This document shows positions 6,179 through 53,927 of a stretch of DNA of 64,000 nucleotides, piece by piece (position 1 is the stretch's first letter; each line of letters starts with the position of its first letter). Under the pieces are notes generated by a model. The model was not told the DNA's origin. It saw only the letters and a list, made by a program, of their open reading frames with translations, and did no database searches. Origin of the DNA: Tubulanus polymorphus. Its lineage: Eukaryota > Animalia > Nemertea. The stretch is taken from positions 8,207,950 to 8,271,949 of the forward strand of contig NC_134026.1 of assembly GCF_964204645.1 (NCBI RefSeq), given 5' to 3'. The translations under genes and the position numbers were made by a program.

Positions 6179-6348
6179 GCTCACGCTTAGATTGTGCGTG
6201 TGATATTACTTTGAATGCGTTTTGAGCATATAGATATTACGCACAGCAGAAATCGCTTCTTGTCGAATTCAATGGGGACATTGATTTTTTTACGAGATTA
6301 GCCGAAATTTGACCTAATATATATGATATATACCCGGTCTGCAGAACA

Positions 6349-7717: not shown

Positions 7718-7867
7718 GAACCTGACCTCGCGTGTATTGTGATGTATGTATATCGTAAATTAAGTGTACAAAGTGTCATAACAGAACAAGTCATTTTATT
7801 ATCAACGGATGAATGATGAATCGTGATTGTGACGCGTGATCAGTGATTGACAAATCGGATTTTACTT

Positions 7868-15305: not shown

Positions 15306-15463
15306 GCTCGCGGTTAGAGTAGATATTACTCTGTATACGCATTGAGCAAAGATAAGCACAGTAAAATTAATCGACTTGGGGCCACAGATCTTTTCACGAG
15401 ATTAGCCGAAATTCGACCTAAAAGAAGTCATTTTATCATATATACGGGTGAATGACGAATCAG

Positions 15464-23200: not shown

Positions 23201-24180
23201 GCATAAGAATTAACTAAATAAGGAGTTATAAAGGGAGTTAAGTTCATCTTTTCCACAAATATAGCATACTTATGATCTTTGTAGGATTCTTGCTACTTGC
23301 ATACATGTACAGTAAACCCCCGATAAACCACCACAACGGTGCAGAATGATTTTGGCGGTATAGAGAATATGGTGGTTTATCGAGGGTGTTTTACTATGTA
23401 TTTGTATTGTATTGTGGGGTTGGCGGTATATGGGAGGGCGGTATATTGGGGGTGACTGTACTTCGATATTGCTGGTTACCAACTGATTACAATTAATCAT
23501 ACCCAACTTTTCAAATGTGCACCAATGATAATTATTGACGTAGAAAAACCACTATCCGTACCATAAAGGGACGCAAACTCTCTTGAAAAAGGTTATAATC
23601 GATTACCTTTGGAGCGAATTGCAAATCCATTTAACCCTTTCAGTGCGTCTACACCGAATTTTACAAAGTTATCTCCAGGCCCAGTTTCATGAAAAAGTTG
23701 AACTCACATTTTTGGCGTAATTGCTATTGATTACTTCATGTTTTCAATGAGGACAACATTTCAAACTTAACCGTCTTAAGCTTAAACTTTTTCATGAAAC
23801 CGGCCCCTGGGCTCGGTTTCACAAAAAAGTTAAACTCACATTTTTGGTGTAATTTCCATTGGTTACTTCATGTTTTGATTGAGGACAACAATTAGAACTT
23901 AACCGTTTTAGGCTTGAATTTTTTGGCGAAACTGGGCCCAGTCCTGTAGTGTTAATATTAACGAGCCAGAGCAGTGAAAGCGTTAAAACCTTAGTCAGAA
24001 TTATCGGTCTTTAAACTCAAAAACATCGGTCATGATTATCATCATTTCAGAAATCGATTGTTGGCGACTGGCGGAGCAGACGGGTGCATAAAAATCTGGC
24101 AGCTCAGCAACGACTTAACAACGCAAATCGACAAGGAAGAAGAGAAATTCAATCAGTTAGCCGACTCCTTCGTGGATTAA
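17272..24180 (+). CDS. DYNC2I2: Cytoplasmic dynein-2 intermediate chain 2 (WDR34), 11 exons, ~494 aa
   Basis: Exons 17272-17330, 17853-17937, 18032-18170, 18920-19049, 19667-19848, 20630-20772, 21438-21517, 21966-22138, 22525-22682, 22895-23100, 24051-24180 (1485 nt, phases consistent). N-terminal TQT/VQT light-chain motifs; SHAFDGY, WNCTGSVIAAAYGRYDHEDW, GGTFNGEVIVWD, CSPFHRNLF and WSPVRP are WDR34 signatures. AATAAA at 24430. Confidence 0.95.
17437..17640. repeat. Degenerate low-complexity tandem repeat (AGTAAT-rich) in WDR34 intron 1
   Basis: Recurring TAGTA(A/G)TATGAAGTAATAAGATGTA and AACCCAT(G/A)GTAAT blocks. Confidence 0.55.
18396..18731. mobile_element. Element with inverted tRNA-like (B-box) ends
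   Basis: Left CATCCTCCCCTGGCAGGGATTCGAACCTATGGCATCG and right CGATGCCATCAGGTTTGAATCCCTGCCGAGGGACGATG are near reverse complements; related copies at ~37006-37088 and ~50970-51533. Confidence 0.55.
19050..19666 (+). other. U12-type (minor spliceosome) GT-AG intron in WDR34
   Basis: 5' site GTATCCTTT (19050-19058); branch point TCCTTAAT (19649-19656) ending 10 nt before the 3' splice site; no polypyrimidine tract; splicing restores ...VIAAA-YGRYDHEDW in frame. Confidence 0.9.
20993..21401. mobile_element. piggyBac-type MITE with TTAA target-site duplication
   Basis: TTAA|CACTTTCAGTGCTGACTAA ... TTAGTCAGCACTGAAAGGG|TTAA, with ~90 bp inverted repeats. Confidence 0.85.
21558..21878. repeat. Dispersed repeat with palindromic core (second copy ~25217-25505 in LYAR intron 1)
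   Basis: TTTCAACTTGACTTGAGAGCA... shared by both loci; TGAAAGGGGTTCATGAGAG ... CTCTCATGAACCCCTTTCA palindrome at ~21714-21868. Confidence 0.7.
23310..23458. mobile_element. Tc1/mariner (pogo/Tigger-like) MITE with TA TSD
   Basis: TA|CAGTAAACCCCCGATA ... TATTGGGGGTGACTG|TA; a related copy beginning ~29385 is interrupted by the Helentron-like element. Confidence 0.75.
23632..23986. mobile_element. Degenerate piggyBac-type MITE containing two tandem PIF/Harbinger-like MITEs (~23679-23807, ~23808-23939)
   Basis: TTAACCCTTTCAGTGC ... GCAGTGAAAGCGTTAA flanks two ~130 bp units, GGCCCAGTTTCA...TGAAACCGGCCC and GGGCTCGGTTTCA...GAAACTGGGCCC, abutting at CWG sites. Confidence 0.7.
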
Positions 24181-24624
24181 TCCTCGAAGCTGTTCGTATC
24201 TGGATATAAATGAACTCGTGACTGTTTATTTTCATTTCGATATTGACGATCTGTGATCACATTAGAATACCTAATCAACAACTCTATCCGTCCACATCGT
24301 TCTGTGCATCCTAGAATTTGTCATCAGCTAATTGAGCATTTATATAAACGATGCTTGTATGATATGATATTAGTGTGTATTTATTTGTTTGTATACAGTA
24401 GTTTAATTGTATATTTTATCTATTTGTAGAATAAAATCATTCGTATGGTTCATTTACACATTTTATCAAAGTATGTTTTTGATTTTCTCAGTGCTCCTAA
24501 CTCTGCTCTTTGGTCAGGTTTTTAAAACCACTATTAGTATCAAGATAAAGTTTTAAATTTCCAGAGATTTTTGGTCGCAAGGTAAATTCGGATTCGAACC
24601 CGAACGATCGTCATCCACCGCCGA

Positions 24625-24966: not shown

Positions 24967-27900
24967 ATGGTGTTCTTTAACTGTAATGCGTGCGGTGAAA
25001 GTATGAAAAAGAACCAAGTCGACAACCACTGTCGAAAATGTCGCAATTGTCAGGTGGTGTCATGCGTTGATTGCGGAAAAGAATTTTGGTAAATATCTCA
25101 GTCTGGGTCAAGAAAAGTATTGGGATGGGACGTTTCCCTATGGGTTAAAATTCGACTGCAAATTTAAGAAAGAAAATATTCAATCCACTGGAACACAGCA
25201 ACTCAAACCGGATCCTTTCAACTTGACTTGAGAGCATATCAGGTGGTCTAGCTCAGTCAGTTTTGGTGCTACATACTTGATAAAAGTCTTATTAGAACTA
25301 GAAAGGACTGGCAGTTCACCTAAAACATAGATTTCTAATCCATTTTAGACTGTTTTGAAGGATATCCAAAAAGTCTTGAATGAAAGGGGTTAAAAAGAGG
25401 AAAGTGACTACATGATTTGAAAGTTTAACAACATTTTTATATATGAAAACATATCGTTAAACTTTTAAAATCATTGAGTCTCTTTTCTCTCATGAACCCC
25501 TTTCATCTCTCACGATTTTGATAGATTTTACAAAAAACCTAGAAAGATCAGGAAATTTGGGTTTCTTTATAAATATGCGGTTAATTAAAAAGAATGATTT
25601 GTAACATTTTAAACTAAGAAATTCGTCGGATTTACTCGGGGAATTTTCTAGGAAAACAGGGAATTTGTGTCAGTTAGTGGAAAGAAGCCACCCTGTATTT
25701 GTTTTAAAAATTGTTTCATTCTTTTTCTATTTCATTTACAGGGGTAACGATTACAATGAACACGTAAAGTGTATCAGCGAACAGGAAAAATACTCTGGGA
25801 AAAATTACAAACCGACTGTCAACAAGGGTGAAGTGAAACAGTCAGCTTGGATAGACGTAAGGATTAACTGTACTGTCAATTCCCAACCCCCTATATACCT
25901 CTCACATCGATGATTTAGGATTTAAAGCGGTTGGCTGCATATCAGGCTTTTACCCTTTCGCTGCGTCACTGTGGTGTGCTGGGGTCCCCAGGTCAAAAAT
26001 AAAAAAATTCAAATTAAAGAATACCATTAATTTTTTTGGGCTGTATTCATTATGATATTTCCTGATGTTTCTTCGATGAAAATAACTAGAAATATTGAAT
26101 AAAAATTTTTATCAGATGCAATGAGCCTTGCAAATGCCGATGGCGCACATCAAATGCCTATTTTATGACAAGCCCAGCTCGTCCTATGCAGTGAACGGGT
26201 TACGTTTGACTAGTTCCAAAACAAAACACAGATGTTCTATTCTTAGAAACTTTGTGTTAGGCGGGTTTGGCAGTTTATCGAAAGCTAGGTGGTGTATTAG
26301 GGATTGCTAAAGCCTGCTTGATCTTTGTCACATTGTTTTGTAATCTGAATTCTCAAAAGTTGTTGATCTTTCTTTGCAGCAATGTCAGAGAGCCATCGAT
26401 AAACATAAAAACGACATCCAACTGAAAGACTTACTCATACGACTTCAGTCGTATCCAAATATTCCTCGCAAGAAAGCTAAATTTCTGGTACGGATATTTA
26501 TTTCCTCGCGATCGTTCTACTAAAGTCCATTTTGCCGTCATCTTACCAATATCTATTAACTGATTCATCAATTCTTTTCAGAACTTTGCCAGGAGTAGTT
26601 TGAATTTGAAATTCAAAGAATATCTAGTCGGGAAACTTTGGGAGGTGCTCGAAGCTGAAGCTAATATAGATAAACAGGTAAACCGATGATATCAAGATAC
26701 ATTCCAATCTATGCCACATGCAATTACTCTGAGCTAGGTGTTGATGAATTTTTTCTCACCATTGTTTCCAAATTTTAAATTTTAAAACATTTTGACGAGG
26801 GGAGGGTGGTCTCTGACCTAGAAAACTCAGGTAATCAGAAAAATCATGAAAAACCAGGGAAAACTCAGGGAAATTTATGTTATCGGCTACACTTGTCTTT
26901 ATCAATGCGCGATTCATTAAAAATGATTAAATCTTCTCATTTTCGACAAAGAAATTCCTTGGATTTACTCGGGGAATTTTTTGTATTATAACATGGAAAA
27001 ATCTGAGAATTCGTAGATTTGTGGAAAGTTGCTACCCTTGTGGGGATAGGATGATTAGTGCTTTGCAAGAAGATTTGAAAAGATTGGGAAAATGAAACTG
27101 TATCGTTGAAATTTGGGTTAAGCAAATTGAGGATTGTGCTAGCCTTTGTCTATTGCCAGAAAAGAAGTTAACAGGATTTGTCAAAGTCATGTTAGTTAGT
27201 TGGAATTTTGTATTCTAACAGAAAGCCGAAGCTGAGAAGGCCGAGAAAGGCGTAGAGCCAGAAAAAACTACAACGGTGACACAAACACCTGAAGAGACTC
27301 GAGTAGAAGCTCCTACCGAAAACGATGAAAACACGACAAAGAAAAAGAATAAACGCGAGAAAAAGGAAGAAAGAAGCGGAAAGAAAGCATCGAAAAAAGA
27401 GAAGAAAAATTCCGATCAACACGACCAAGCGGAGGAGAACGGTGAGAAAAAAACGAAGAAAAAGAGGAAACGAAAGCACGACTCGGAGAGCGAGGAGAAT
27501 GAAGGGGTGACCACAGAAGCTAAGAGAGTTAAACGTGATGATACCGACGCGGAACAGGTTTGTATTCGTCAAAGTCTCTTCAGGGAAAAAAAGTTTACAC
27601 AACCTTGATATTGGAATCTAAATCTACCGTTACCCTGAGGGATGAAATTTTGAAATGGAGATCTGGGAGATTCCTTATTAGTTTTGTTTTGATACACCAC
27701 GCATTAGTCAGAATTGGATATTTGAAAATTGTTGAATTTGATTTTGAGGTTGACTCTAACTCAAAGGCGTCCCCAAGGGGGTGCGGGGGTAGCGGACGCA
27801 CCCCCTTTTCGAGATAGCGTACTTTTCAAGATACTATGTAATCAATGTTCAAGATTTTTCTTGCGAATTTGACTAGACTTTTAACTCTAATGATTCATTT

Positions 27901-30900
27901 AGAGCCTGGAAAATATCTCTAGCTAAAGCCTCCAATTGTCACAAAGTGTTTTTGGGTAGGCTTACCAAACACCCAACATTGTGGATAGGTCTACTCTACT
28001 GGATTGATGCTTATTCGAACCCCCTATGAAAATTCCTGGGGACGCCTATGTAACTCTTAACTTGCTTTGTTACTACCCTCCAATTAACTAGTGTTTTTCT
28101 CCCTGGGTCTTGTAATGTGAAAGAAGATTTGTTTGTTACAGTTTCATGACTTATTGTCCGAAATATATTGTAGAAGCCTGTCGAAAATGGTAAACATAAA
28201 GAAAAGAAGAAAAATAAAACGAGTCAGTTAGATACAAGTATAGCACCGAATACAAATCACGACCATCCAGTTGAACCAGACACAGGTGAGATATGGAACG
28301 ATACTAACTCAAGAAATGCCCAAAACTCCTTAAAAACTCCTTCAATTTTGAGAAATAGGCAAATTGTACTACTACGCCTACACCTTAATGGGTACAGTTG
28401 GGACCAGGTGATAATCGAATTAGAACCCATGTTTAGAAGTGTAAATGATAATTGTCGATAACAAAACCACCAAATTAATGGTTTACCAAGATAAACGGTG
28501 GCTATTTAGGAGTCTCCTGTAATTGGGATATAAAAGTGATGCAGACACTTCCTCGAAATCTAAAACTTTTTTCCTTTAAAACTCCTTATAACCTGGATTG
28601 ACTGATCAATAGGGACCCTAATGGATGCCCAGCATTTACAGACCAGTTTTAACTTCAACCGAATTTGCCAATAGTTGAAAATCAGATCAGTTTGGAAAAA
28701 TAACAAGACTTTGATAACTTGTGCTGTACCGGTATTATTCTTCAGGTGATAAGTGTAGTAAGAAATTCAACTGGCTGAAGACGATTGTCAGTCTGTTAGA
28801 ACACAAGTCTGATAAAGAGATGGGAATAAACAAGCTGAAAAAGAAAGTGAGTGGATTGATACATAGATTATTTACAGTATTTTACACTTGTTGACTCAAG
28901 GCTGGTCGAGCTGGGCAATGGTTTTGCAGATGATGATTCGTTCATGAAGGTTTTTCAGCTAGGTTTGCTCCCATCTCCCCGAAAACGTATTCTGTGATGG
29001 ATTATGAAACAGCTGCGTCTTAAACACTAGGATCTGTAAACATTCATAAACAAAGTGACTCAATTCACGTGGATCATGGTACCGGAAAACAATGGTCTCA
29101 AATAGTCCCAGAGTCTTTGAAACGGAACCATTTTACAAAGTTTCTCTGGGGATGACCCCGAAACCCTTGAAAAAATGCGAATTTTTTGGTTGACACCTTG
29201 CGCCATCAGATATGGGCCGGGCCAATCAATGTCAACTCGCTTCAGACCAGTGTGGACCAGCCGTACCAGTGAAAATCAAACCCACCCTACTTCCAATTTT
29301 GAATTGCCAAATACACTAACACTTTAAAACAGCCATCGTACAGACTTCACATACTGATGCATGCAGGCTGCAGATGAATACTTACAGTCAACTCCCGAAA
29401 TGCCATTCACATCAGTGCAGAACAATTTTGGTGGTATAGAGAGTATGGCGGTATATCGGGGGTGTTTTACTTTGTTAGCCCACTTGGGACTTTAGTCCCA
29501 CTTGGGACTTTAGTCCCAGCGGGCTATTGCGTTCACTTTTTGTCCGTCGTCCGTCCGTTCGTCCGTCCGTAGACGGAATCCAGTTATTTTGGGAAGTTTT
29601 GAAGACACTTCAAGGTAATGTCTTGATATTTGGTTTATACATGTTTCTACCCTAGACACATCTTCAGCCCAAGAACTGGCCCTATCAGAATCAAGATGGC
29701 CGACTGGCAGCCATTGTTGTTCGCCAAAATCAGGACTTTTTACACATTTTCGAAGTTTACGAGGGAAACTTTGAAGACTATATGATCTTTCGAATATATT
29801 TGAATCTACCAAGGGCCCATCAGCATAAGAAAAATTGGGTCCATCTGACTCAAGATGGCCGTCCTATGACCTTTTTAGTGCCCAAAAATGTCAATTTTGG
29901 CCAGAATTCTAGGTCCTGTAGCTTCCTACTGGTTTGCCATTTCTCATTGCAATTTGTGATGGGTATTCTTTGTAAAGGGATGTTTTATACCTGAGATAGG
30001 TATTTTTGATCCGCCAATTATGACGCAATTGGCGGCCATCTTGGTGTCATTAGTACTCATTCGTAGGTGGGAAAAAGTTTTTCGACATTATATTGTTACC
30101 TAAGCATATTTTGTTACAACAATGAATTAGAAAGTTGTAGCGTATAACGTGTTCTATGATTGGGGTGAGTTTCAAGTTCATTGTTTTTTGTATATGGCCA
30201 CCAGGGGGCGTTGAATAATACAATATCTTAGTATTTCTATATTATATTTGTACCAATACATATTTGCAATCAATTGCAAAGTTGTAGCTCATGACATCAT
30301 CTATGATTGTGGTGAGTTTTAAGGAAATTAGTCTATATGGTCACCAGGGGGCGTTGAATAGTAGAATAACCTGGTATTTCCTTATTATATTGGTACCTAG
30401 GCATATTTTGTTACCATGATCAATTGCAAAGTTGTAGTTCATGACATGTTCTATGAATATGGTGAGTTACAAGGTTATTGGGTTTTGAATATGGTCACCA
30501 GGGGGCGTTGAATAGTAGATTAACTTAGTATTTCCATATTAAATTAGTAACGAGGCATTTTTTGTTATCACAATCAATTACAAAATCGTAGCTGCTGACG
30601 TGTTTTATGATAGTATTGAGTTTCAAGGTCATTGGTTTTTGTATATGGTCACCAGAGGGCGTTGAATATTGAAATTGTTAGATTGTTGAGCATTTGAAAC
30701 CACTTCCCAAGTGGGCATGGTGTCCCTGGACCCCTAGTTTTTGTTTAGAGGTGGGGGTGGCAGTAAATGGGAGGGCGGTAAGAAAGGATTGTTGTTTTTT
30801 ATACTGGTGTATGCATACTTATTTCTGTTATGTAGGTGATAGCAGAGTACATGGAAAAAGGCGGCAAACGAACGAAGTCGGAACACGAACTATGGGCTAA

Positions 30901-30976
30901 ATTCAGTCATAAGATCAACGCGCATCCGCGATTTAAAGTGTTAAAAGAACGCGTGAAACTGGTGGACGAGGGTTGA
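24967..30976 (+). CDS. LYAR: Cell growth-regulating nucleolar protein LYAR, 8 exons, ~376 aa
   Basis: Exons 24967-25088, 25742-25856, 26380-26487, 26582-26677, 27222-27557, 28174-28285, 28746-28846, 30836-30976 (1131 nt). MVFFNCNACGESMKK..H..C and SCVDCGKEFW..HVKCISEQEKY (two LYAR C2HC fingers), NIPRKKAKF, Lys/Glu-rich middle, C-terminal KFNW...KLKKKVIAEY...PRFKV. AATAAA at 31076. Confidence 0.96.
29472..30740 (+). mobile_element. Non-autonomous Helentron/DINE-1-like (HINE) element in LYAR intron 7
   Basis: 5' TTAGCCCACTTGGG with a short duplication, (GTCC)n microsatellite at ~29543-29570, internal ~150 bp tandem repeats, 3' subterminal inverted repeat CCCAAGTGGG, short GC hairpin (GTCC-CT-GGAC) and CTAGTT end; inserted in a T run inside a Tc1-type MITE. 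Confidence 0.78.
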
Positions 30977-31917
30977 AGAATGCGGTGTATGGTTTAAACG
31001 ATGCATTTATTATATAAGGTGGATGCGTGAATGCAAGTGCGAGGTTGTGTGAAAACATTATGTTAATGTTTTATGAATAAATATTTTAAAGATGAATTTG
31101 ATAATATTGTCATATGTTATGGTGGATTTCCGATTGTTCTTGAATCTTCGGAACCTTTTCGGTAAGCTGCAAGTTGCATTGAACTCTACGATGAATTTGA
31201 GGCGAGGCTTGGATTTGCTGATGCTAGAGGCAGAAAGAAATGGGGATAGAATTAATGGCTGAAAAGGGAAACTGGCAAAAACGAATACAAGCGATTTAGG
31301 AAGGAATTACATGGGCATGAATTCGTTAAAAATGTGGGAATGAATGAACACCCATTGTGCTGTAGATTCCGCTTGATACGGATCATTTGGGACAAACAAA
31401 ACGATATATAAGTATATGAAATATCAATGAACAAAAGGTGCTGCCGCTATGCTCGTCGTAAGCGGATTTTTTGTACACTAACATGAACCGACTCTGCCAA
31501 TCAAATAGACCGGTTGCCGCGGAATTGTAGTGAAAGACTGGTTGCCTGAGCTCTCGTTGGATTGCCAGAATCGGGCATCAGGACTCCAAATGAAAAAAGA
31601 GGAAAATTCGACGTTTTTCTCCGTTCTGGCGTTACGTGTCTTTTTGCGAATTTTACGTTTTGCCCAAATCAGTCAACATACCGGTGCCTAAATAGCAAGC
31701 AGTCGACAAAAGACGGGCGCGCTCCATTTTTGACCAAACGTGCACTGAGACCATTAAAAAACTATACAATTATTAATTTATTTGGACGGAAGCTGGTGCT
31801 TCCCCGTATGTCTCACACCCTCTTCCCTCCCCCTCAGTCGCCCCCTCTCCAGAAGTACACCGATGAAAACCGTATAAACCCTGGACTAGTATCTGATTCA
31901 AACTAAACTCAGGAAAC

Positions 31918-32374
31918 TATGGTGGCTGATTCGGGCCATGTAAAAAAAATCACAGACGTTGCAAATCTTTTTTTTACAGACGCTTACAAGTCATTTTATT
32001 GCGCAATAAAACGAAAATTACTACTCAATAACGTAAAAAAACCACGATAAAACAGGACATTTTCGTTTCTTCGTTTTATTGTCGCGTTCAAACGAAAAAA
32101 TAGCGATATAAAACGCGAAAAAACGACGTCTCGATAAAATGGAAAACAAAAATTTCCGTTTTCTCCATTTTCCCTTTTAATTTGGCAAGAAAACGAAAAG
32201 GTGACGATAAAACGACTTTTTCTCGTTTATCGCGCGATAAAACGAAAATATACCGTTTAATCATGGTTATTTCTCGTTTTAATGCGTGATGAAACGACTT
32301 TTAAGCGTCTGTAAAAAACCTTGCATTCTCTGTGCTTCTTATTTACGCGGCCCGTGCCCGAATCAGCCACCATA
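31918..32374. mobile_element. MITE with 19-bp TIR TATGGTGGCTGATTCGGGC
   Basis: Perfect TIR pair (GCCCGAATCAGCCACCATA at right); internal GATAAAACGA / TCGTTT repeats; the same end occurs in intron 1 of both SLC43A3 copies (~5603, ~14417). Confidence 0.8.
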
Positions 32375-32450
32375 AGATTCTATTCAAAAAGGTTCATTTT
32401 GAACAAACTCTGAGTGGGGATGGATAGAAGCATTCTGCCCGAAACGTCAG

Positions 32451-32589
32451 GGCCCAGTTGCACAGTCGTGACTTAAGTCCAAAATTGGTCTTAAATCTTA
32501 AGACTGGTCTTAAGTTGTTAGATTGAGTATAGAACTAAGTTGGTCTTAGACCAGTCTTAAATCTAAGCCATGACTATGCAACTGGCCCC
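32451..32589. mobile_element. PIF/Harbinger-like palindromic MITE; relatives at ~20273-20392, ~36737-36800, ~38248-38364, ~39125-39251, ~57788-57914
   Basis: GGCCCAGTTGCACAGTCGTGACTTA ... TAAGCCATGACTATGCAACTGGCCC with CAG flanks. Confidence 0.72.
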
Positions 32590-32938
32590 AGGATCACAGA
32601 ACGTGTAGTCATTTGATCACTTTGGTGGTTTTTATGGTATAGTTTACGAAGCTCCTTGAGGGGTTATTTCCACGTTAAACCAGCACGTGAGGCGCATATG
32701 ACGCGCGATTCTCGTATATTGGGTTCGACTCAAACCTACTTTATTGCTTCGGCTAATGATGAAATGAAACCCTGACAAGCGAGGACTTTCCGGTCGGTCC
32801 TACAGGGAGTCAACTGGAAGACATTCTTAGGCAAAAAGGGCAACCTTAAATAGAAAGGTAACTCAGCCCCCGTAATAATGAGCTTAGGGATTAAGAAATA
32901 TCAAGGAACAAAATATTTGTTGAAATTTTGTAAAATTT

Positions 32939-35900
32939 TTTATTTATTGCTTTCTTAAATCGACCCTGTACAAAATATCTATGACTTTGGTCATATACTA
33001 TGACAATGACACTACAGTAAAACATAAACATTGATTGTCCTATGTTACAAGCAGCTATGCAATCAAAGAATATATTTACACATATATTGTTTATTGGACC
33101 ATAGTTGCCGCCATTAGAATAAATATGTCTTAATAATTTTTCTTTTTTTTGGAAATTTAGTACCTGCATAAAAGCATTCATCGTGATAAGGGATAATGCA
33201 GGCGGTGCTTTTGTACAGATTCAGGTACCAATACATGCTTAAATAACTAAATCCTGGCTCGAGTAATTTTCTGGAACCCGTCTCACAATTATTGATATCT
33301 ATATATAAGTATAACAATTCGAATTTTCAAAAATACAAGTCAGCAGAGTTGAATTTCAACTCAAAACTGTTGAAATTGCTGTTGTATTGGTACAAATTTC
33401 AGGAATAATATCTGCTATATAGAATATCCCCTAAAGTCGACCAAAATATCTAAAAGAATTTCGTCGACAACTATGGCCCACTAACGGCATCTCTGTCCCC
33501 AAAAAAGCTACAGTAACATATACAATATGATGCACGAAATGGTTTTGAAATACAGACCCTGGCTTCCGGAACAAAAAAATAAAAATCTCAATCAATGAGT
33601 TTAAAAAAAAACAACAAAAATGTCATCAAAATAATCATTTTACATATAGAAGAATAGATAGAATGAATTAGATTTCGCGTAAAGCCTTATAGTTTATTTC
33701 TAATTTCGAAATGTTTGCTTTAAAATCAATTAAACTACGACCCTGTTCTTCGATTACGTAATAAAATCAAACGTTTTGGACACTGGTGGTTAGAATATTC
33801 ATCCCATCATTAAATTTAATGAGTGGCTATACTTAGATGTATGTCTGGTTAGATTTGCTAGATTGACGCGGGTCTACAATCTTAAGTTCGGAAATACAGG
33901 AACCGCCGACGCCAACATTACTCATATTAATGAATCGTTTTTCAATCAAAACCGCTATTTCATCCATACACCAACGCCGATATACGAATACACGTATATA
34001 CCATGCGATGTATATACATTTATTTATATATACCCTGTTGACAATTATTATATAACGAATCTTCTTATTTTAAACTATATGGAATCACAATAATACACAA
34101 AGACGTGGAAGCATAAAAAATACAAAATAAATTATTTGGTTTGTGTCACCGTCTATTTACACAGACTCGCCGTTATAGAAGTACGCGCGAAACATTTCTA
34201 TTCATTTTCACGTTCTTCGTAATTGTACGAGTATACTTTCTTTCATATGATTATTTACAGTAATTCATTTCGTTAATCAGAGAGCTGTCATGGATATTTT
34301 TATCGGATTTTAGAATACTCATATTATATATATATATATTATGATAAAGCTATCACACGCGAATCTAGAGCCAAAATGCAGAAATCGTCCGCACGCGCCA
34401 CACGCGACTGGTGCTACATTTGTTTTTACACAAAAATATCGTAGAAACTTTCATATATCAATATTTATAGAGCAACGCAACTGCGAAAGCAACACATATT
34501 CCATACCGCCGTACTTAATTCGTTGAAATCATCAAATCGTCTTTAAGCAACGCCGACGATGAAGATACAAAAATGGAGAGCTACAATAGTTCGATAGAGA
34601 CGATTGGAGGGAACATTCTAGAAAAATCGCTAAATTTCTTTTAAAAAACTGTATTTTCATTTCGAATATATTGTTCTTTACGAAAGTTTTATTGCTTTAT
34701 ATACGCGGTGTGCATACGTTACTATTATTGCATGTGCAAATGACAACGGAAATTTGAAATTATCTATTTGTTGGCCGGTGCAAAATCTATACCAAAACGT
34801 TAAATTCATGGGGCAGAGTCACCAATTTTACTTGAAGGGAGTAGGATTACATTTACTAGCTAGATATATAAATAGTGCCCGCGTACGCATTCTTATTTGA
34901 CTATTTGATATAATTATTCTCTCCTAAGATTATTGAGAATGGGAAACGTACAAATATGATAAATGCAATGATTTCTACGCGAAACGCCCAGGAGTTGATA
35001 CTTGGAGAATTTTAAGGTATAGTAATGCATCGACGTTGGAGATACATATCAGTAACACATCTTTTTGCGTGTTCTTTTTCCATAAAAATTCCGGTCTTTC
35101 TATGTTTTTTTCTTTCAGTCCGAAAATATTCAATATCCGCCATTATCCATTATAACGTCTTTCCTTATAGCGTAGGAAGTTGTTTAGAATTTTCTTCGAG
35201 TTTTGGTACCGGACTAAAATATGATAGATATTGATGAAAAAAACTTCTAATTAGAATTACCCTGTAGATTAAAACATACTTTTGAGGTCGCGGTCATATC
35301 ATAATGAACGAGCCCGGTGTATTAAGTAAGAGAAATCGGATGCCCCCGGCCACCGCTGAACTCATCATCCATAGAAAATCCAAAGGAAATCACGGAAATA
35401 CGGTATCGCCGAGGTAGCAGACGTATTTTCAATTACCAGCATGACATTATCAATCACATGAAACCAATTGACTGGAACTATCATTATTTTACCAGTGCGG
35501 GGAAGGCACGGCTTATAACGAGAGAACGAACGAGGAAAAAAAATCATTCGCATTTCATACATCAGTAATCATAAGTACTTAATTTTCTAAGTACAATCAC
35601 TACAATATATGTTTATATATATATATATATATATATATAGGTATATGTATTAGTATACATCACAAAAATACAGGAAAACAATACTATCCGTCGCGAAGAC
35701 GATCGAAATAAAAGTGCCACGATTAGAATTTAGAAAATTAAATCGTATCGTTACTTTAACGGAATGCTGCCTCGTTGTACTAGGGGGCAGCCGATAGTCG
35801 GTATCAATACACAAGTTATGCCTTCTTAAAACTAAACGCGGCCTTATAGTCTATTGTAGTAGGATGCCTACTATATACCTTGTTTTTCAATTACCCTGTG

Positions 35901-37830
35901 AACGATTTCTTATTCGAACGAACAGACGCTTCGTTTTTATAGATTTTATATAGAAGCGCAAAATCAACGCTCGTCTTAATCTTAATTATATACCCTGTCA
36001 TTCGTGATCATTTACGTTAGTGTATATTGAATAATGAATAACGTTTTACGATAATTTCTTTTTTTTTCTTTAAAAACTCAAAGAGTACCCTGATTACTCC
36101 AATAACCCTGTTCACGATCATACGATGAATTGCGAGAAAGGCTGAACACGAATGATACCTTGCTTCTCCTCGGATCGGCCGGGTCATTTTAGTAAACCGC
36201 AATGAAATTTGTTATCAGTTCATTTCTACAGCTGCTCGGTCTGTTATGGTTAGCCTGATTATGATTTAAAAAAATAATGCACAGAGTAGATAGGCGGCCG
36301 ACCGGGTCAACAGAAAGGAAAAACAAGGTATCAATTTTCTAGCCTAAAATCATACTTTAAATTAATTTTTTATGAGTACCCTGATTAATCCAATTAATGA
36401 ATGAATGATTACACCCTGTTCACGATTCACGATTCTTTCGAATCCCCCCACCCGCCCCTAATTTTTAACCGCTCGTTTTTTCATTCATCGCAGTATTCAA
36501 CTTCGCGATATTCGTTTTTGTTCTATCATAATTTTACTCTCAGCTTGACGAAAGCCGTAGCGATGAATGCAACGTGCACGATATTATGCTTGAGTACACC
36601 TCAAATCGTGACGAAACATAACGAACAGCATAGCTGCGACAACTTAAGAGGCCATCCATTAAGTATGCATCGAAATCTAAATTAAGACATTTTTGAAAAA
36701 TTCTGAGAGGCTTTTACGTCAATGTTTAAGCCTCAGGGGCCGGTTCCGTAGTCATGGCTTAGACTTAAGACCAGTCTAAGACCATCTTAGTTCTATGGAA
36801 AAACTAACAAATTAAAAATTAAACAATGATATTGTTATGACTGCACGATAAAACCGTTTTTGAAAATGGCCCATAGAATTGGATAGAAACGTCAAATTAT
36901 CATTCAGTTTTTTTTTCATTATCTTGTGGGATTTCACTTCAATTATATCAGATAGTCACTTGTCTACGGAAACCAAAACGATTTGACGAGTTGTGCTACA
37001 AATTCTCATCCTCCCCGGGCAAGGGTTTCGTGCTGTGACCGACTCAAGCGATGCCATCAGGTTCGAATCCCTGCCGGGTGGGAAGCGAATTCTTTGTGTA
37101 CAGAAAATTTTTAGACTATGAATACTTAATGAATGGCCTCGTTCGATGTACATGAAATAAATATTCAACATTCAAGAGATTTAAGAAGAATCGATGTGAA
37201 TCCTAACAAAAAAAGAAACATGACCATATCATACGTATATAGTCAACATATTTGTTTTGATAGCTTGACATAAAAATTTCATTTTCACGATAACTTTCTC
37301 AAAATGACATTAATAATGATAGCAATGATAACAATAATAATAATTATTATTATTACTACCATCACTGCGCTAATATACAATATCATCAACAACATTTAAT
37401 ATGTAAATAATAATAATCTTTCGCACACGCATACGTATGGTAATTTACATTTTTAAAAAAGAAGAAAAAATAACATATTTCACGAGTCGACGACGACGAC
37501 GTTGCCTCAATATACAATGACTGTGTGAACGCCTTTTTTCTATTATTACCCTGTTGTCCAGTTGAGAACAATACTGTCTATACACCGATATAATAACATA
37601 TACGGACATAACCAAAAAGCACATGCCCACATTTCGTAATTGGTTCATTCCTTTTTTTTCGTTAAATAATGAAGCTCGAGAAGAGGTTTTTTGTTTGTAT
37701 GTTTGTGTATACAATATATCACATAATCGTCACGAACAGAGAGAGAGAGAGAGAGAGATAGAGAGAGAGAGAGTCAGTGAGAGAGATAAACGACAAAAAA
37801 CATCGGTGACTAATAGCGGTCGTTACGGAA
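32939..37830 (-). promoter_or_regulatory. Putative long 3'UTR of FGFRL1 with clustered miR-10 seed sites
   Basis: Runs from the stop codon (37831) to overlapping AATAAA signals on the minus strand (32939-32948) with a U-rich tract downstream; AT-rich and transposon-poor; 12 ACCCTG matches on + (CAGGGU in the mRNA). UTR extent is inferred, not transcript-supported. Confidence 0.6.
37738..37787. repeat. (AG)n microsatellite; also (TA)n at ~35614-35639
   Basis: Read directly from the sequence. Confidence 0.9.
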
Positions 37831-40800
37831 CTAGCATTCACCGTACATAGTGTGTTGAGGCGTTTGCATGTACATTCTCTGCATGTTCGACGAATTGTTG
37901 AAGTCCGACTGCGAATGCATGTCCGAATTGTAGTTTTTTAACATTCGTTCGGTGGTCGGCGCAGTGCCCGCGCCCGCGGCCGTGCCCGGCGCGTAGCGTT
38001 TCGCCGGCGTTTTCTGAGGTTTCCTCGTGCATTTTTGGCGCACAACGATTACGATGATTATTATTATAATGAGTAACGCGATCGGAATGCCAATGATTAA
38101 CGAATAGTTTGATATATCGTCCAACGGCGTCGAATTGTGAACCTTTTTCGTATGGCGGTCTAATGGCTTCGCGTTCGGATCTGAAAAAAACCGAAAAAAT
38201 TAGAAAAATAATGACGGTACTTCCAAGAATCACCGGCAAATACATGGGGTCAGTTGCTCTAAGGTTGGATAACCAGCGGATAACACAGTTACAATGCAAT
38301 TTCAATTATCACTATGTCAACTATCCGCTGGTTAACTCTAAACAATTTTTCAGCAACCGACCCCTGCATTTCATTTCCTTTAAAATGGTGTACAGATTAG
38401 GTTTATCAAACAAGATACTGCATAGCTAATTTAGATTCAATGAAAACATATGTTTCAAAAAAGCGTGAACATTATCCAAACAATAAGGATCTCGAGGGAT
38501 CGCCACAAAATGGCGCCTAGAAACTGGAAGCTTCTTTATTATCTCTGAGTTTCATTTATCTGGTATTATTCTGATCGTTAAACTATGATGAAACCGGCGA
38601 TATTTAGATAGTCCATTGGCAACGAAATGATTGACGGAAAAATCTGAATTAAATGTCGAACACATTACGGTTGAGTGGGGATGTGCTATTTCGATCGGGA
38701 AAGTGAAACTTGACTATAGGAAAGTCCTTGATCAAGATACGTTACGCACCGCATTAACGGGCGATTCTGTAAACAACATTATTGAACGTTAATGCACCCG
38801 TAACTAGATACGACGAATACTCTTAACGGCGTATATTTACCTGGCGTTACCACTAAATATGCTTCTTTGTAGTTATATCCGCGGTTATTAGCACCAAGAC
38901 ACACGTACATGCCGGCATCTTCCGCTCGTGCGTTGTGAATTGTCAGTTTATTTAAATAGGAGCCATCTTTGCGGAACCAGACCTCTCCCTTTTTCAGCAC
39001 GTGTAAAACCATGCCGTTCACTTCGATAGTTTGATTCGGCTGCGTGACGGGCATTTTACTGTCTAACTTTTTCAACCACTGAAACGGTTAGAGTATAGGA
39101 TGATGAATGATACAATCTATATAGGAGCCAGTTGCTCAAAAGTTAGCTTAAGATAACCGGTGGATAAATATCATAGTTAAAAGAACTTTTAATTGTCACT
39201 ATGTCAACTATCCACTGGTTAACTCTAAGCAACTTTTGACCAACTGGCCCCTGGTTGTACAGACAAACTATCAGAGGCTTCAGTTGAGATCTTTTTATAC
39301 CCAAAATATCATAAACTGACATGCAACCAGACCCACGACTAAAACAGAACCATAGTACAGTGGAACAAGTACCAGGTACTCCTCTCTATCAAAGGGGATT
39401 AAAAAAGCATCAAATTATTAAAATGGACTTTTTGAAGCCACTTTCCAAGACATAAGTTCTATCAGTTCCCAGTTTTCTCAACACCCAAATCCCGAATTCC
39501 AAGTGTAGAGTGCTATCTCAGCTTCTCGTTGAAGATTCAACCTTTTTAACATTTTCCGTTATAATCGAATCGTAGGAACTTTGTCCAACAAATGTATTAT
39601 TGTATAATAACATTCAGATTCACTTAATACACAAAACAAACAACACTTACCGTTATATGAGGAGCCACCTCGCTGCGAACCTTACATTGGAAGGAAGCCG
39701 TGTGACCGAACTGAACAGTAGTGTTCACGGGATGTGGTGGAATTAACTCCGGTTTCAACATTAGTTCGCGTTCTGTAAATATCATAAACATCGCATGTTA
39801 TATCGTATAAATATCTTAAGTGTATGTGCCAGTTTTTCTTAAATGTTACAAGAAGACCGAATAGCCGAAAACTAATGAAAATCACTACGACCTCATGGTA
39901 CAGAATTTCATATGAAAATCCTCTCTCGAGACCTCGGAGAATTATCGGAGCATTATCAAATCCGATAGTTAATCTTAGGTCCGTATAGTTTTTGATGGAC
40001 AAAAAACTAAAGCGATCACGGTCTTTTGAGCAACACAGGATCTCGAGAGAGTATAGGCTATATACACTTTATAACGCGTGTTGAAAAAAATAGCAATATA
40101 ATTCTGCAATACAAAATTACGAAATCTGCTAATTTCAAATTTTCATTAGAAACTACGTTTCAACTAGTCACTTCCGGCCACCATTCCATTTGACGATGGC
40201 TGGAAGTGACCAGTCGAAATGTCGTGGCTACTGGAAAATCGAAAATTCGAAATAAGCAGATTTCGAACTATTTCGTTTTATTAATCAAAGATTGACAAGG
40301 TTGAATAATAGTAAATAAGAATTTGAATGATCCGGTATCTGCAGCAAAATTTACAAAATCTCTGACGTTGCCCACACTCTCGACTTGAATGTCTCTTCGC
40401 TTCTTACGCGAGAACGGACATAATGGAGACGAGAATATTTTGAAATATCAAAGGTGATGCAACGCTCCAGAGGATGATGTCATCTTTTCCTCTGGCAGTC
40501 GTTGTTTCGTTCTCATCAATTTTCATTAATGTATTTTTATATGCTGATGTGTTTAATGCTCCCCGCGGTGGTAATTTATCCTAAATTATGCAAACACGAA
40601 TATGCTTATCGTTCCCATGGGCTGAATGAGCGATATTGTATTGCGTAATAGATCGTCGGAAAAAAATATCCTCGCTTATTAATCGTGAATTAAAATTCTT
40701 CCTCTTAGGCGGAAAAAAAATAGAATTCACCGCGAAATATATTCTACAAATCAATGAAGACTATTTGTTTTGTAAACTCGCAGAAAACGAAAATATTGTT

Positions 40801-43800
40801 CTTCATAGATAAGCTTATTCAAAAGTTTTTTATTCATTTATTTTATCAAATTGACATTGAAACTTTCGGACAGCAAGCTTTTTCGCGTCTAGCGCCAAGA
40901 CTTTGTGGAATAAATCAAATCTTTCCGATTTATGTCATCTCAATCTGGATCAGTTATAAAGACATCTCAAAACCACTTTGTTCTGTGACTATTACGATAA
41001 GATTTACCCACAGGGGCGCATATTGCTCTGTACTATAGGATCCTTGCGCGATATAAGAACAATTTATCATTCATTATTTCTATCAAATTTAACACAAGCC
41101 TGTGGCACGTAATTCCCGAATCTTACCTATTATTTTAAGCTCAAATGTGTAATTTACATATCCGACGCGGTTTTCGGCTCTGCACATATATTTGCCACTG
41201 TCCTCTTTATGCAAATTGGCCAACTCGAGCGTCCACTGGGACTTCTTGATTCCTTGCGTTTCTCTCCATTCTCCGTCGACCTGTTTGAACCAGGTTATTG
41301 TCGGCCGCGGTTTACCTTTCGCTTTGCATTTCAGCCGGATGTCGTTGCCGACTGGCCGTAGTATCGGCTCCCTCCGTAGCTTCTCCGGGTGTACGAACAA
41401 GGGCGCAACTAGATTTCGAGAAGAAATGGCCAATTAGAAAAATAAAAAGGCTTTTACACCACCCTCGATGACACCGAAATAGGTGCTGCCAATATTCGCA
41501 ATCGATTTAGGCACTACGATAGATAAATCAATCATAAACAGAATTGCGAAATCGACAAAACTGTCCAATACGTTCTATCATCAATTTCACAATGTAAACT
41601 AATGGAGTAGGTTTTTTTCCGCTTCTGTATATAAACCAAATTCAGCCATTTTGATGAAATCTTGAATTTCGCTGTTTTGCAATTGAATGATTCTAAGGAG
41701 GATAAACCGATCAAAGTGAAAATATTTCCGACATTTTTGAATCCACTGTTACGAAGATATAAAGAAAGAATTCATTTCATTAGGACATGAATATCTTATG
41801 AAAATAAAGAGATCAAACTGAAAAGTATGTTTTTGCAATTTTTGAATCCATGTGTACACATATAAAGAAAAGATCGATTCAGTTTGCACCTGAATGCAAG
41901 CCACAAACCACGGAAATTGTAGTCCAGTTTTTTATTGCTTTCTTTAGATTTTGTTAATAACAGATTAAATTCTATATCGAATTACGTTCCGTACGGCAGG
42001 GTCAATTTCCAAGGCAGATTCTCTCCGGGATCTCTCAACACGATCGAGATTACAACCGAAGGATCGGATCTCGATCGGAGGAAAGCAACCAGAAATCCCG
42101 GAGAGAAAAATCGTTTGTCAGCAATAAGAGTATCGGCTGATTTCGCGGAAGCTACACCGTTCGAAACTAGCAGCAAATTTGAAATCAATATGGCTGTTGA
42201 TGATTGGTTAGCGATGAAATATAGCTGATTGCCAATTTCGAGTTGCTACACGGAATTCACACCCGACGCATTCGTTCACCGGGGAACGCAGATACGGAAG
42301 GCTCCGAAGAGACCCGTGATTTGGAATTGAATTTCCTCCGCGCATTGATAGCGTATATAACTCGAGTTAACGCGGGCGAAAATTTGTTACTAGCTTTATG
42401 GTCGGGCTACACAGTGCGCAGAATTTATCAACTCGAAATTGAGCGGAATGAACTGAATACGAGGAATACCCTCGGTACAGGGAGCGAAATGATTATACAT
42501 AAACGTTCGAATCTCCTACCGAAAAAGACACGATTGAATGGGTACCCGCAAAACCAGCTATCCCACCAGATGGCGTGACGAGCAGTAGGTCGTCGGTTGT
42601 CAAAAGTGAACTGGATTTTTAGACTCCCCAATAGGTATATCATCACAGCACCCAGAGAAAAGTTCATTTCGATTTAATTGAAATGTAGAAGAAAACGAAG
42701 GCGGACGACCAACTTGCTACTAGCGAACCTGGCGGATCCTCGCCTGCCATGCGTGGAATCCTCGATTGACACAGCAGCACCCCTGCGGGTACCTCATTGA
42801 CTTGAGATGATGAATATCGATATGAATTTACACTTACTTCCCGGTGAATTTGAAAAGTTCGCCGTGGTATTTCCATCTGCAAAATAGAAAGACGAAAATT
42901 TAAAAAAAAAACGATGATATATTATTTCAGACGTGATATAGAATCTATTACGGGTAAGGGTTATACATGGTCGGATGTGACATTTTTGACAAGGCGAGCA
43001 TTTTGTTCGGCTTATCGTTGGGAAATGGAAGAGGATTTCTGATGTCCCTGAGGCAGTAATTAATTGACTTCATACGACAAGTGTGAGTGAAACAAATTGC
43101 TTTCTGATCAATTTCTGCCCAGTCGCAGTTGCTTATATACGGGTGGTATTTAAATGAGATCGGACGACGAGAAAGTAACGCTCTGACCGGTTTGTTGCAG
43201 CCGATTATCTGACCGCGGAGCAACAGTCAATTGTGCGCGCGCGATGGCCGTTCGGACCACGTAATTTCGAGTGACGTCTAGCAAGGAAGGATTACTAATA
43301 TCGCAGTTGATTTGAAGGCGCCGACTTTCGATACGAACTGGCGTGCCGAGTAATTCCGAACACGGCGTTTTGTGCGCATAACCTGAAATGTGTCGTTCCA
43401 AATCTCTTACTATTTCGATCATTTCTTTTCCGGTCGAAAAGACCTCATCATCCCGAAATATCATCATTTGCTCCACTAACCTACATTATCATTATTGTAT
43501 AAGAGAACCTTGTGGCCTTCTCTTCGTTATGTCATTATCGTCAAACTATTTGGTTTCCAGCATTTCAGATGATTCAGGTTTCATCATCTAGACGTGCCTT
43601 ATCGTTTTCTGAGAATCTGAAAGCGACCTCCGAAGCATTTTCAAAAACTTAAACCGACACCAAACCAAACCTACATTTCTATTTTTCTGTAAATCCGAAA
43701 CAAAATGGCGGCCTTTACGTAGTAAAGCGGCCTCCGAAGCATTTTCGAAAACCTTAAACAAGAAACCAAAGCTATATTTCTCTTTTTCTGTGAATTCGTA

Positions 43801-52800: not shown

Positions 52801-53927
52801 CCCGAAATTACGTATCAATACGCAGCGTGTGTTTCTAAACAAACGAAAACCGTTGCGCGCCCGTGAGTCACTTGTATACTTACGCGCGCGCGGACGCTAA
52901 CGACAGTAACTATGGAAATGGCGAATGATGGATTACATCGACGTCGCCATCTACAATGACATTTCACTCGCCGGAAATTATTTGAGATATCTCTCATTTG
53001 ACAATCGGAAAGGCATCGCGGAATGCTTCGCTGTCTACAAATTTCAGATGAATTGATCACCATTCAATTGAGACAGCACGTCGCGCTACAGCGCGGCCCT
53101 ATATGGAGAAATAAAAACAACAACCTGACCGCGCGAGGGCAGAGTGTTGAATAATTTATAATTTATGTTATACTCGCTTTCCGGAAATATTCAGGCAAAC
53201 TACGATAATGTATTTCCTTGGTAACCAGCCATCCCATTAAGTGCAACGGCCCCGCATAATCTAGTTTAGGGATGCGTTGAATTCCGGAGACTGGACTGCG
53301 CATTAGACTAACAGCAGCTCCAGGGACGTGTCATCTTTTCAGAACAAAGGATATGTTTTCCAGCAGAAAAGAAAATTCTGAAAATGACATCTGATCTAGA
53401 AACATAACCTGGATGTCAAAAGCAGACCCCGGTAAAAGCTAATACCGGGAATCATTCGTTTTTTTTTTGTCAGAAGTGTCTTGGTGTTCTCTTTATTCCG
53501 CCTTCGTCTTTCTCGAAACTTCACAACAACCTTGAGCCAGAGTTCGGTCGGTTTTCGTGACGTTTTATCCGGCTAATGAGCCGCCTCGTTCACACCGGTG
53601 GTATCTTTAAGGAGCGGAATAAGGGCCTCGCTTAAAAGCCAGGCGCGAACTTACCGATCACTTTTAATGTAATGTTGACGGACACCGAACCAAATCCATT
53701 AGTAACGGTGCATCTGTATACACCTGAATCTTCCATGATTACGTCTAAGATTCGCAGTCTTTTGTTCATTACTTCAAATCGCTCCCAGCCTCCGCCGATG
53801 ATTTGCATGTCTTTGTGCCATTGGTAATACGCGTCCGAGTCGGATTCCGCCGGACACGGAATCTTCGTGTTGTGTCCCAGGCGGGCCGTGTGGTATTTCG
53901 CCACGCGCTGCGATACCACTGGTGGAC
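37831..53927 (-). CDS. FGFRL1: Fibroblast growth factor receptor-like 1 (FGFRL1/nou-darake), 5'-partial
   Basis: Exons 53927-53655 (Ig1, GPPVVSQRV...ARLG...[13 protein letters not shown]), 42876-42838 (39-nt linker), 41408-41127 (Ig2, [11 protein letters not shown]), 39772-39651 and 39078-38841 (Ig3, [31 protein letters not shown]; DGSYLNKL...[11 protein letters not shown]), 38180-37831 ([12 protein letters not shown] and a kinase-less tail ending YGEC*). Phases consistent. Signal-peptide exon not found in the window. Confidence 0.95.
38366..38540 (+). mobile_element. Solo terminal fragment of the long-TIR transposon family seen at 7868-9633
   Basis: Aligns with 9459-9633, ending CAAAATGGCGCCTAGAAACTGGAAGCTTCTTTATT. 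Confidence 0.8.
40850..41080 (+). mobile_element. L2/CR1-group LINE 3' end fragment
   Basis: Translates to [14 protein letters not shown], then frameshifted (W)N...HLKTTLF, typical of the L2 ORF2 C-terminus; followed by GCGCGATATAAG and an AT-rich tail. Confidence 0.6.
43620..43810. repeat. ~115 bp direct tandem duplication in a FGFRL1 intron
   Basis: AAAGCG(A/G)CCTCCGAAGCATTTTC...TTTCTGT(A/G)AAT..AACAAAA occurs twice (~43620, ~43723). Confidence 0.7.
49298..49513. mobile_element. piggyBac-type MITE
   Basis: TTAA|CCCTTTAAAGCCC ... GGGCTGTAAAGAG|TTAA. Confidence 0.6.

Follow-up and report, generated by a model that had tools for sequence, protein, structure and literature searches.

A dense array of miR-10 seed matches in the predicted 3' UTR of FGFRL1 as a likely microRNA target in the nemertean Tubulanus polymorphus

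Is the FGFRL1 mRNA of Tubulanus polymorphus, beside whose gene matches to the miR-10 seed recur, a target of miR-10-family microRNAs, and could such repression help to separate head from trunk? In the present study, we examined this question in a window of 64 kb, the whole stretch of DNA analysed. A previous sequence-only reading had assigned the minus-strand gene beside the array to FGFRL1/nou-darake, and the architecture, best matches and tail alignment of the predicted protein (P0001) bear this out: judged by its sequence, the gene is FGFRL1, a kinase-less FGF receptor. The predicted protein of 461 aa has three I-set stretches and one transmembrane segment, with no kinase among 14 Pfam families, and its closest named matches are FGFRL1 of Lineus, Lingula and Branchiostoma, in a similarity ranking and not a tree. 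Its short tail can be aligned to the HQH..Y.C ends of FGFRL1 relatives, with fewer His. On the minus strand, IgI is encoded at 53653-53928 and a small linker exon lies at 42839-42877 (both with approximate bounds), followed by IgII at 41127-41408 and the first and second halves of IgIII at 39651-39772 and 38841-39078. The last coding exon part (37831-38180), seen in the sequence and in the spliced record X2-6, holds the transmembrane segment, the kinase-less tail and the TAG stop codon at 37831-37833. No signal-peptide exon was found within the window. In flatworms, FGFRL1 confines the brain to the head.

The interval beyond the stop codon had been taken as the 3' UTR of this gene, which is supported by bridging contigs and by a poly(A) signal. 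The predicted UTR of 4.9 kb (32920-37830, minus strand) was delimited by the stop codon and the poly(A) signal, and its longest ATG ORF has 87 aa. This putative signal consists of two overlapping AATAAA at 32939-32948 on the same strand, with a U-rich element downstream. The spliced record X2-6 leads from the coding exons to 40 nt beyond the stop codon. In the same run (X2), contig pieces, which are strandless, span the stop codon together with 10 of the 12 seed matches described below, and contigs of a separate study (X3) bridge 5 of these 10. X2 and X3 are classed as RNA runs solely from their exon-joined records; the tested intron bins (40100-40867) had zero depth in both. We drew no evidence from how contig depth varies over the UTR, since depth cannot rank gene parts. 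The X2 and X3 pieces end at differing points (33118 and 32948, respectively), and the RNA 3' end was placed from the poly(A) signal. From a further run, X6, only 6 records matched, all in one repeat.

Alternatively, the stretch might be transcribed as an independent non-coding RNA, perhaps acting as a sponge for miR-10, and the FGFRL1 mRNA itself would then end soon after its stop codon, as at ATTAAA 37395. Several poly(A)-like hexamers upstream would suit such an arrangement, as would the strandless contigs, which have no RNA end, and the segment 37434-37790, which is spanned by none of the listed contigs. The seed match at 37547 lies outside every listed piece, and none of the X2 or X3 contigs extends unbroken from the stop codon to the distal sites. 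However, the contig gaps (37434-37790 and 35579-35662) coincide with simple repeats, (AG)n and (AT)n runs, which break contigs, and the pieces otherwise tile down to the canonical poly(A) signal in the FGFRL1 direction. In addition, 3' pairing of the type that triggers microRNA decay is not enriched (see below). We regard a separate RNA as quite improbable, and the assignment of the 4.9-kb stretch to the 3' UTR of the FGFRL1 mRNA as well supported.

An exact word search of this interval found 12 miR-10 seed matches, all on the mRNA-sense (minus) strand, and every site previously listed was recovered at its + strand coordinate. Read on the + strand, the five 8mers are TACCCTGT (34031-34038, 35258-35269 with its extension, 35892-35899, 35991-35998 and 37547-37554), further copies of ACCCTGT form four 7mer-m8 sites (32963-32969, 33740-33746, 36105-36111 and 36413-36419), TACCCTG forms two 7mer-A1 sites (36086-36092 and 36377-36383) and ACCCTG one 6mer (33556-33561). 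The extended match claimed at 35258 was confirmed as 12 nt, reaching miRNA nt 12, and this site forms the strongest duplex (-20.9 kcal/mol). The 8mer at 37547, 283 nt from the stop codon, and that at 35892 also fit Mir-10-P5 as 8mers and P6 as 7mer-m8 sites. Both 7mer-A1 sites are 7mer-m8 sites for Mir-10-P5; they lie 18 nt from the 36105 site (36086) and 35 nt from the 36413 site (36377). The site at 32963 is about 15 nt ahead of the poly(A) signal. The 11 sites of at least 7 nt, including the two close pairs, amount to 2.2 per kb. The opposite-orientation word CAGGGT has, as was claimed, 0 copies on the + strand of the interval; across the full window that strand carries 3 (2342, 18665 and 41997). 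The claim of one ACCCTGT elsewhere in the window needs correction, as two are present (25690 and 57675).

As the sequence-only reading had proposed, the interval was compared with its own dinucleotide shuffles. In 3000 of them, ACAGGGT had a mean of 0.09 and a maximum of 2, against 9 observed, and the 6-mer core a mean of 0.34 and a maximum of 4, against 12 observed. Markov models of orders 0-4 trained on both window strands gave 0.15-0.25 expected ACAGGGT; shuffles and models together put the expectation at 0.09-0.25, where a rough value of 0.1-0.2 had been offered earlier. Under these window-trained models, ACAGGGT ranked first among the 7-mers of the interval, with Bonferroni-corrected (4^7) values of 1e-7 to 1e-9. 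With interval-trained models, which contain the motif itself and thus feed its own expectation, it ranked first up to order 3 and 59th at order 4. The UTR, bounded independently for this purpose from stop codon to poly(A) signal, makes up 4% of the sequence and holds 9 of the 11 ACAGGGT of the window on both strands (binomial 9e-12). The cores in the interval number 12 on the mRNA strand and 0 on the opposite one; same-strand introns have 3 in 19.8 kb and coding exons 0 in 1269 nt.

It should be considered whether the array arose by chance, or was left behind by a repeat or by local duplications. A module of about 45 nt is indeed duplicated locally, at 36083-36118 (module A, with the 36086 and 36105 sites) and 36374-36426 (module B, with the 36377 and 36413 sites), by which one 7mer-m8 and one 7mer-A1 site are copies, and the UTR contains three dispersed repeats (36170-36345, 36734-36815 and 37022-37100). 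However, none of the 12 sites lies inside these repeats, the site flanks are unrelated beyond the one module, and the bins with sites outside the duplicate show low depth in X4, a DNA-like run. After the duplicated site was collapsed, 8 independent ACAGGGT were left with log10 P of -10.4 (P ~1e-10); the best word in 11 other control tiles of 4.9 kb reached -5.0. Membership of the motif in a dispersed repeat, which the earlier reading held would overturn its proposal, was checked and rejected, as neither shared flanks nor high copy number were seen. An origin as relics or by chance is largely refuted and very improbable.

The sites have sharp, seed-like limits, since all 9 ACAGGG are followed by T and all 12 AGGGT are preceded by C. 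At t8, A occurs in 9 of the 12 sites (p 0.003), and at t1 in 7 (p 0.05, a borderline excess); t9 agrees with miR-10 in just 2. The flanks are AU-rich (p ~0.015) and the sites more open than GC-matched words (accessibility, p 0.03). A match at t8, A at t1 and an AU-rich, open context are rules of microRNA seed sites. The array thus consists, as canonical seed sites do, of exact complements of nt 2-7 or 2-8 on the mRNA-sense strand, above chance and in a context that follows these rules. CAGGGU could instead be the word of an RNA-binding protein, with the match to miR-10 coincidental; G-run binding proteins exist, and strand-specific repetition would fit such a protein equally well. However, all 6 nt of the word are invariant, its single-mismatch neighbours are nearly absent, the t8 and t1 preferences are those that the seed rules predict, and the word is the seed of a pan-bilaterian microRNA, which makes a protein-binding word improbable.

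The claim that the sites fit the canonical register and not the 1-nt-shifted Drosophila form stood in its first part, with 9 matches vs 2 for the +1 shift, but the register is not exclusive: 7 of the 12 sites are 7mer-m8 or better for Mir-10-P5, a 5'-shifted lophotrochozoan paralogue (PMC12257675), and P6 has 3 matches. All P5 and P6 matches lie inside the same 12 cores, so that these paralogues have no evidence separate from the cores. Mir-10-P1 is bilaterian, and P5 and P6 are lophotrochozoan (PMC12257675 supplement 3). The miR-100 seed, the miR-125 7mer and the antisense P4 seed each had 0 matches in the interval. Supplementary 3' pairing was not enriched (p 0.049 with random positions as the control, 0.14 once the duplicates were left out and 0.26 against shuffled miRNA tails), and the duplex energy of the sites showed no excess (p 0.31). 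Two further candidates were rejected: an extended-pairing site that triggers slicing or microRNA decay, as 3' pairing is not enriched and the 35258 site pairs nt 1-12 with mismatches at 13-14, and a miR-10 gene copy at 35258, where the folds are weak (-7.7 and -8.8 kcal/mol) and without a pre-miRNA stem. An Rfam scan of the window gave 0 matches.

Overall, we consider it likely, with a probability of about 0.75, that the twelve sites have been selected for repression of FGFRL1 by miR-10-family microRNAs. The sites, their excess, their strand bias and their seed-shaped limits are observed, and the place of the stretch in the mRNA 3' UTR, most of which is covered by contigs of the run with spliced FGFRL1, is well supported. 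By established seed rules, Argonaute with Mir-10-P1 (seed ACCCUGU) would bind the 11 sites of at least 7 nt, the shifted Mir-10-P5 may help at 7 sites, and the outcome would be strong deadenylation and translational repression of FGFRL1. The array is thus likely a real and very dense new miR-10 target with an ordinary mechanism. Across the listed X2 UTR pieces we found 2 differences within the species, 0 of them inside sites, a variation too low for a constraint test. Five orthologue loci of FGFRL1 were obtained from metagenomes, of which L002 and L003 stop short of the stop codon. The UTRs of L001 (201 nt), L004 (10 nt) and L005 (796 nt) had 0 sites; at the Tubulanus site density, the probability of none is 0.61, 0.98 and 0.14, respectively, these UTRs being too short to decide. 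The fish-like one among these three gives no support, and the genome and viral collections yielded no orthologue UTR.

The role of such repression can be approached from other phyla. miR-10 follows Hox4 in its expression and acts as a repressor of anterior Hox genes (PMC2148072), human neural progenitors are caudalized by miR-10 (PMC4582174), and in one nemertean the Hox genes are absent from the head rudiments (PMC4426647). If miR-10 is made together with Hox4/Hox5 in the trunk of Tubulanus, FGFRL1 would be lost posterior to the head and persist anteriorly, giving a sharper anterior FGF-sequestering zone of the nou-darake kind. By this analogy a head-trunk circuit of miR-10 and FGFRL1 is plausible; given the repression, we hold it tentatively, somewhat short of an even chance. 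By the same mechanism, miR-10 may rather tune FGFRL1 where both occur, as in gut, nerve cords, maternal mRNA or regeneration, and not at the head-trunk border, a serious contender that we place a little below the halfway mark. FGFRL1 of amphioxus is maternal and at first ubiquitous, and its later expression extends to the trunk endoderm, the anus and the tailbud; fly miR-10 is found in nerve cord and mid/hindgut. Posterior FGFRL1 domains occur in amphioxus and mouse as well (PMC2754479). However, eleven 7-8mer sites suggest clearance over mild tuning, and an anterior bias of FGFRL1 recurs across several phyla, being seen in amphioxus, Xenopus and the sea-urchin apical plate. In the literature consulted, validated miR-10 patterning targets are mainly anterior Hox genes, and loss of a Hox microRNA often has slight effects. 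In its broadest form, the head-trunk proposal would be an old bilaterian circuit, in which miR-10 and its shifted lophotrochozoan paralogues clear FGFRL1 from the Hox-positive trunk and the Hox cluster sets the rear limit of a Hox-free, brain-forming head field, also in the head regeneration gained independently by the Tubulanus lineage; this we think unlikely. Such an independent gain is described for two Tubulanus species, T. polymorphus not being named there (bioRxiv 10.1101/439497).

If true, FGFRL1 with its eleven 7-8mer sites would stand out, as a target other than a Hox gene, among candidates for the role of the deeply conserved miR-10 in a spiralian, and its orthology to nou-darake would offer a testable direct link from the Hox cluster to the FGF-based mechanism that keeps the brain in the head. 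If the array is limited to the Tubulanus lineage, it would be an ordinary though very dense target. The sequence-only reading knew of no report of this interaction, and our literature search likewise found no paper linking miR-10 to FGFRL1. In titles and abstract openings, none described miR-10 acting on FGFRL1/nou-darake; the 89-gene target list in PMC4582174 lay outside this search and could include FGFRL1. Texts naming both, in the portions covered, are cancer reviews. For microRNA control of planarian nou-darake, the search found no report.

Among known systems, planarian nou-darake, an FGFRL1 orthologue, has three Ig domains and one membrane span and is kinase-less, as in Tubulanus (PMC2754479). 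The human FGFRL1 3' UTR is under miR-210, miR-107 and miR-187-3p, so that FGFRL1 is likewise a microRNA target there, but these belong to other microRNA families in a hypoxia and cancer setting, and miR-10 is not named in the part of that source consulted (PMC12026108). In vertebrate endothelium, miR-10 lowers a growth-factor decoy receptor and frees its ligand, as proposed for Tubulanus, the ligand being VEGF there, whereas the present proposal concerns FGF and axial patterning. The proposed logic is also that of zebrafish miR-10, a Hox4-linked microRNA that clears an anterior transcript posteriorly, and in the repression of HoxB1a and HoxB3a the seed and the types of 3' UTR site are alike. 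The zebrafish targets are validated Hox factors with 2-3 UTR sites each (PMC2148072), whereas the Tubulanus candidate, a decoy of the FGF pathway, has 12 sites.

The gene had been called FGFRL1 in the sequence-only reading, and this identity was borne out: its IgII exon matched P0001, a protein labelled FGFRL1 of Tubulanus polymorphus, at 99%. P0001 has three Ig domains and a hydrophobic span without a kinase, and its best named matches are FGFRL1 of Lineus, Lingula and Branchiostoma, with tails that align. The six coding exons lie on the minus strand (53928-37831; stop codon 37831-37833), and a signal-peptide exon was looked for within the 64-kb window and not found. One record of the sequencing run X2 joins exons 37791-38180, 38841-39078 and 41127-41408 in consecutive letters and extends 40 nt beyond the stop; since these letters map to separate exons, it was regarded as spliced mRNA, in a set of runs none of which is annotated as RNA. 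Further X2 pieces cover 33118-33802, 33804-35578, 35663-36773, 36767-37075 and 37049-37433, and X3, from a different study, has pieces between 32948 and 37067. The intron bins at 40100-40867 had zero depth in both runs, with depth present in the DNA-like X4. Gaps between pieces coincide with (AT)n and (AG)n runs, and at 32939-32948 two overlapping minus-strand AATAAA hexamers are followed by a U-rich tract. Thus, the interval 32943-37830 is well supported as the 4.9-kb 3' UTR of FGFRL1, short of proof because contigs carry no strand, end or continuity information. The same contigs might be read as a separate sponge RNA, which we consider very improbable.

The convergent plus-strand neighbour (24967-31096), whose contig piece ends at 31096, is presumably LYAR-like from its N-terminal zinc-finger sequence, a label that Pfam did not confirm. 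Human LYAR lies at 4p16, as does human FGFRL1, a possible old linkage. Farther off are a plus-strand gene with a WD40 domain match (20000-24200), which we take to be WDR34/DYNC2I2-like, and two closely similar tandem copies of a minus-strand multi-pass transporter (600-15400), presumably SLC43-like, with a reverse-transcriptase fragment between them (6313-7549).

MicroRNA sites are classed by standard rules as 8mer, 7mer-m8, 7mer-A1 and 6mer. The mRNA-sense (minus) strand of the interval contains 12 CAGGGT cores (five 8mers, four 7mer-m8, two 7mer-A1 and one 6mer); every site claimed earlier was recovered at its stated coordinate, and the opposite strand has no core, as had been said. X2 bridges ten of the 12 with at least 31 letters on either side and X3 five of those ten; an X3 piece has its end 15 nt from the 32963 site, and the 37547 site is outside all pieces listed. 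The full seed word, ACCCTGT on the plus strand, occurs nine times, against a mean of 0.09 and a maximum of 2 in 3000 dinucleotide shuffles of the interval, so the proposed enrichment was confirmed. Outside the interval a second copy, at 25690, had been overlooked, and the whole window has 11 (shuffles of both strands: mean 3.8, maximum 9). Window-trained Markov models of order 0-4 expected 0.15-0.25 and ranked the word first (Bonferroni-corrected P 1e-7 to 1e-9). In interval-trained models, whose null includes the motif itself, the signal was predictably weaker at order 3 and gone at order 4 (rank 59). Same-strand introns held three cores in 19.8 kb, and coding exons none in 1269 nt.

Two site pairs derive from one duplicated module of ~45 nt (7mer-A1 then 7mer-m8; 36083-36118 and 36374-36426), the copies flanking a dispersed repeat at ~36170-36345. 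Their spacings, 18 nt in the first and 35 nt in the second, which was widened by an ATGA run, are within the cooperative range of miRNA sites. The earlier reading had allowed that the motif might belong to a dispersed repeat, and this duplication invites the idea that the sites are repeat relics; none of the 12 lies inside any of the UTR's three dispersed repeats, and we hold that origin to be highly unlikely. After merging of the module, eight independent 7-mers remained (log10 P -10.4), and the best word among 11 other equal-size tiles reached -5.0, these being counted as 11 rather than 22 because both strands of a tile yielded the identical word. Just past the UTR end (31918-32374 and 32450-32589), nested inverted repeats with perfect outer arms of 19 nt accompany a high-copy palindromic element, MITE-like in appearance.

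In the UTR, ACAGGG is followed by T in 9/9 cases and AGGGT directly preceded by C in 12/12, and single-mismatch neighbours of the core are nearly missing. The target position opposite miRNA nucleotide 8 is A in nine of 12 sites (p 0.003) and that opposite nucleotide 1 in seven (p 0.05), and agreement with miR-10 falls to 2/12 opposite nucleotide 9. Flanks are AU-rich (0.74 vs 0.66, p 0.015), and the sites show greater openness than words of matched GC content (p 0.03). Pairing past the seed is not enriched across the 12. CAGGGT might instead be a word for an RNA-binding protein, which we think most improbable given these edges. As judged from sequence, the profile is that of plain seed sites, under rules given in part in PMC2148072. 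The 12-nt match at 35258 was tried as a miR-10 hairpin and rejected, there being no hairpin.

In the Platynereis catalogue, the miR-10 family member Mir-10-P1 has the seed ACCCUGU, shared by P4-2 and P7, and lophotrochozoan P5 and P6 are shifted one and two bases 5' (PMC12257675). The 7mer-m8 matches number nine for P1, seven for P5, three for P6 and two for the +1 register, all inside the 12 cores, so separate action of P5 or P6 has no support; three sites suit P1, P5 and P6 together. The claimed register therefore stood against the +1 form and proved not exclusive: P1 would account for every site, and P5 could share seven. No miR-100 or miR-125 7mer was found in the UTR. Seeds of miR-252 (35572-35594) and miR-281 (34287-34293, 36751-36757) in the same list gave two 7mer matches each against an expectation of 0.18 apiece, an excess that does not survive multiple-testing correction; one miR-281 match is inside a repeat.

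Most likely, with a probability of about three in four, miR-10-loaded Argonaute would bind the 11 predicted sites of at least 7 nt and strongly lower FGFRL1 output wherever miR-10 is present. Additional minus-strand AATAAA/ATTAAA hexamers occur at 33090, 33693, 33815, 34019, 34688 and 37395, and alternative polyadenylation at the last would leave just one of the 12 in the transcript and might thus serve as an escape route. A further step, in which trunk miR-10 would clear FGFRL1, we rate by analogy at somewhat under even odds once targeting is granted. Zebrafish miR-10 follows Hox4 and represses anterior Hox genes (PMC2148072), human fore- and midbrain are without miR-10, which caudalizes progenitors (PMC4582174), and head rudiments of the nemertean Micrura are without Hox gene expression (PMC4426647). 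Planarian nou-darake is an FGFRL1 orthologue, and FGFRL1 of amphioxus and Xenopus is anterior-biased (PMC2754479); it also marks the apical plate of sea urchins and the hypothalamus of zebrafish (PMC11758999). Against trunk clearance, however, amphioxus and mouse FGFRL1 have posterior domains too (PMC2754479), and Hox microRNA effects in vivo are often not apparent (PMC3394115). Head regeneration in two Tubulanus species (bioRxiv 10.1101/439497) offers a setting for tests.

A metagenome scan gave five FGFRL1 loci, two stopping short of the stop codon; the UTRs of the other three (201, 10 and 796 nt) had no sites, for which the chance at Tubulanus density is 0.61, 0.98 and 0.14, so that they carry little weight for or against conservation. 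Genome and viral collections yielded no FGFRL1 ortholog UTRs. Literature searches turned up no paper in which miR-10 acts on FGFRL1 or nou-darake, though such a link may exist in supplements, in articles behind subscriptions or in target databases. An FGFRL1 review names miR-210, miR-107 and miR-187-3p (PMC12026108), a slug Hox cluster has several miR-10-like copies, and lophophorate FGF work leaves out FGFRL (PMC12506671 / PMC8180254). The VEGF receptor Flt1, listed as a miR-10 target (PMC4200483), is a parallel case. The mechanism is ordinary; as far as found, the target, the density and a possible Hox-to-FGF head link are new.
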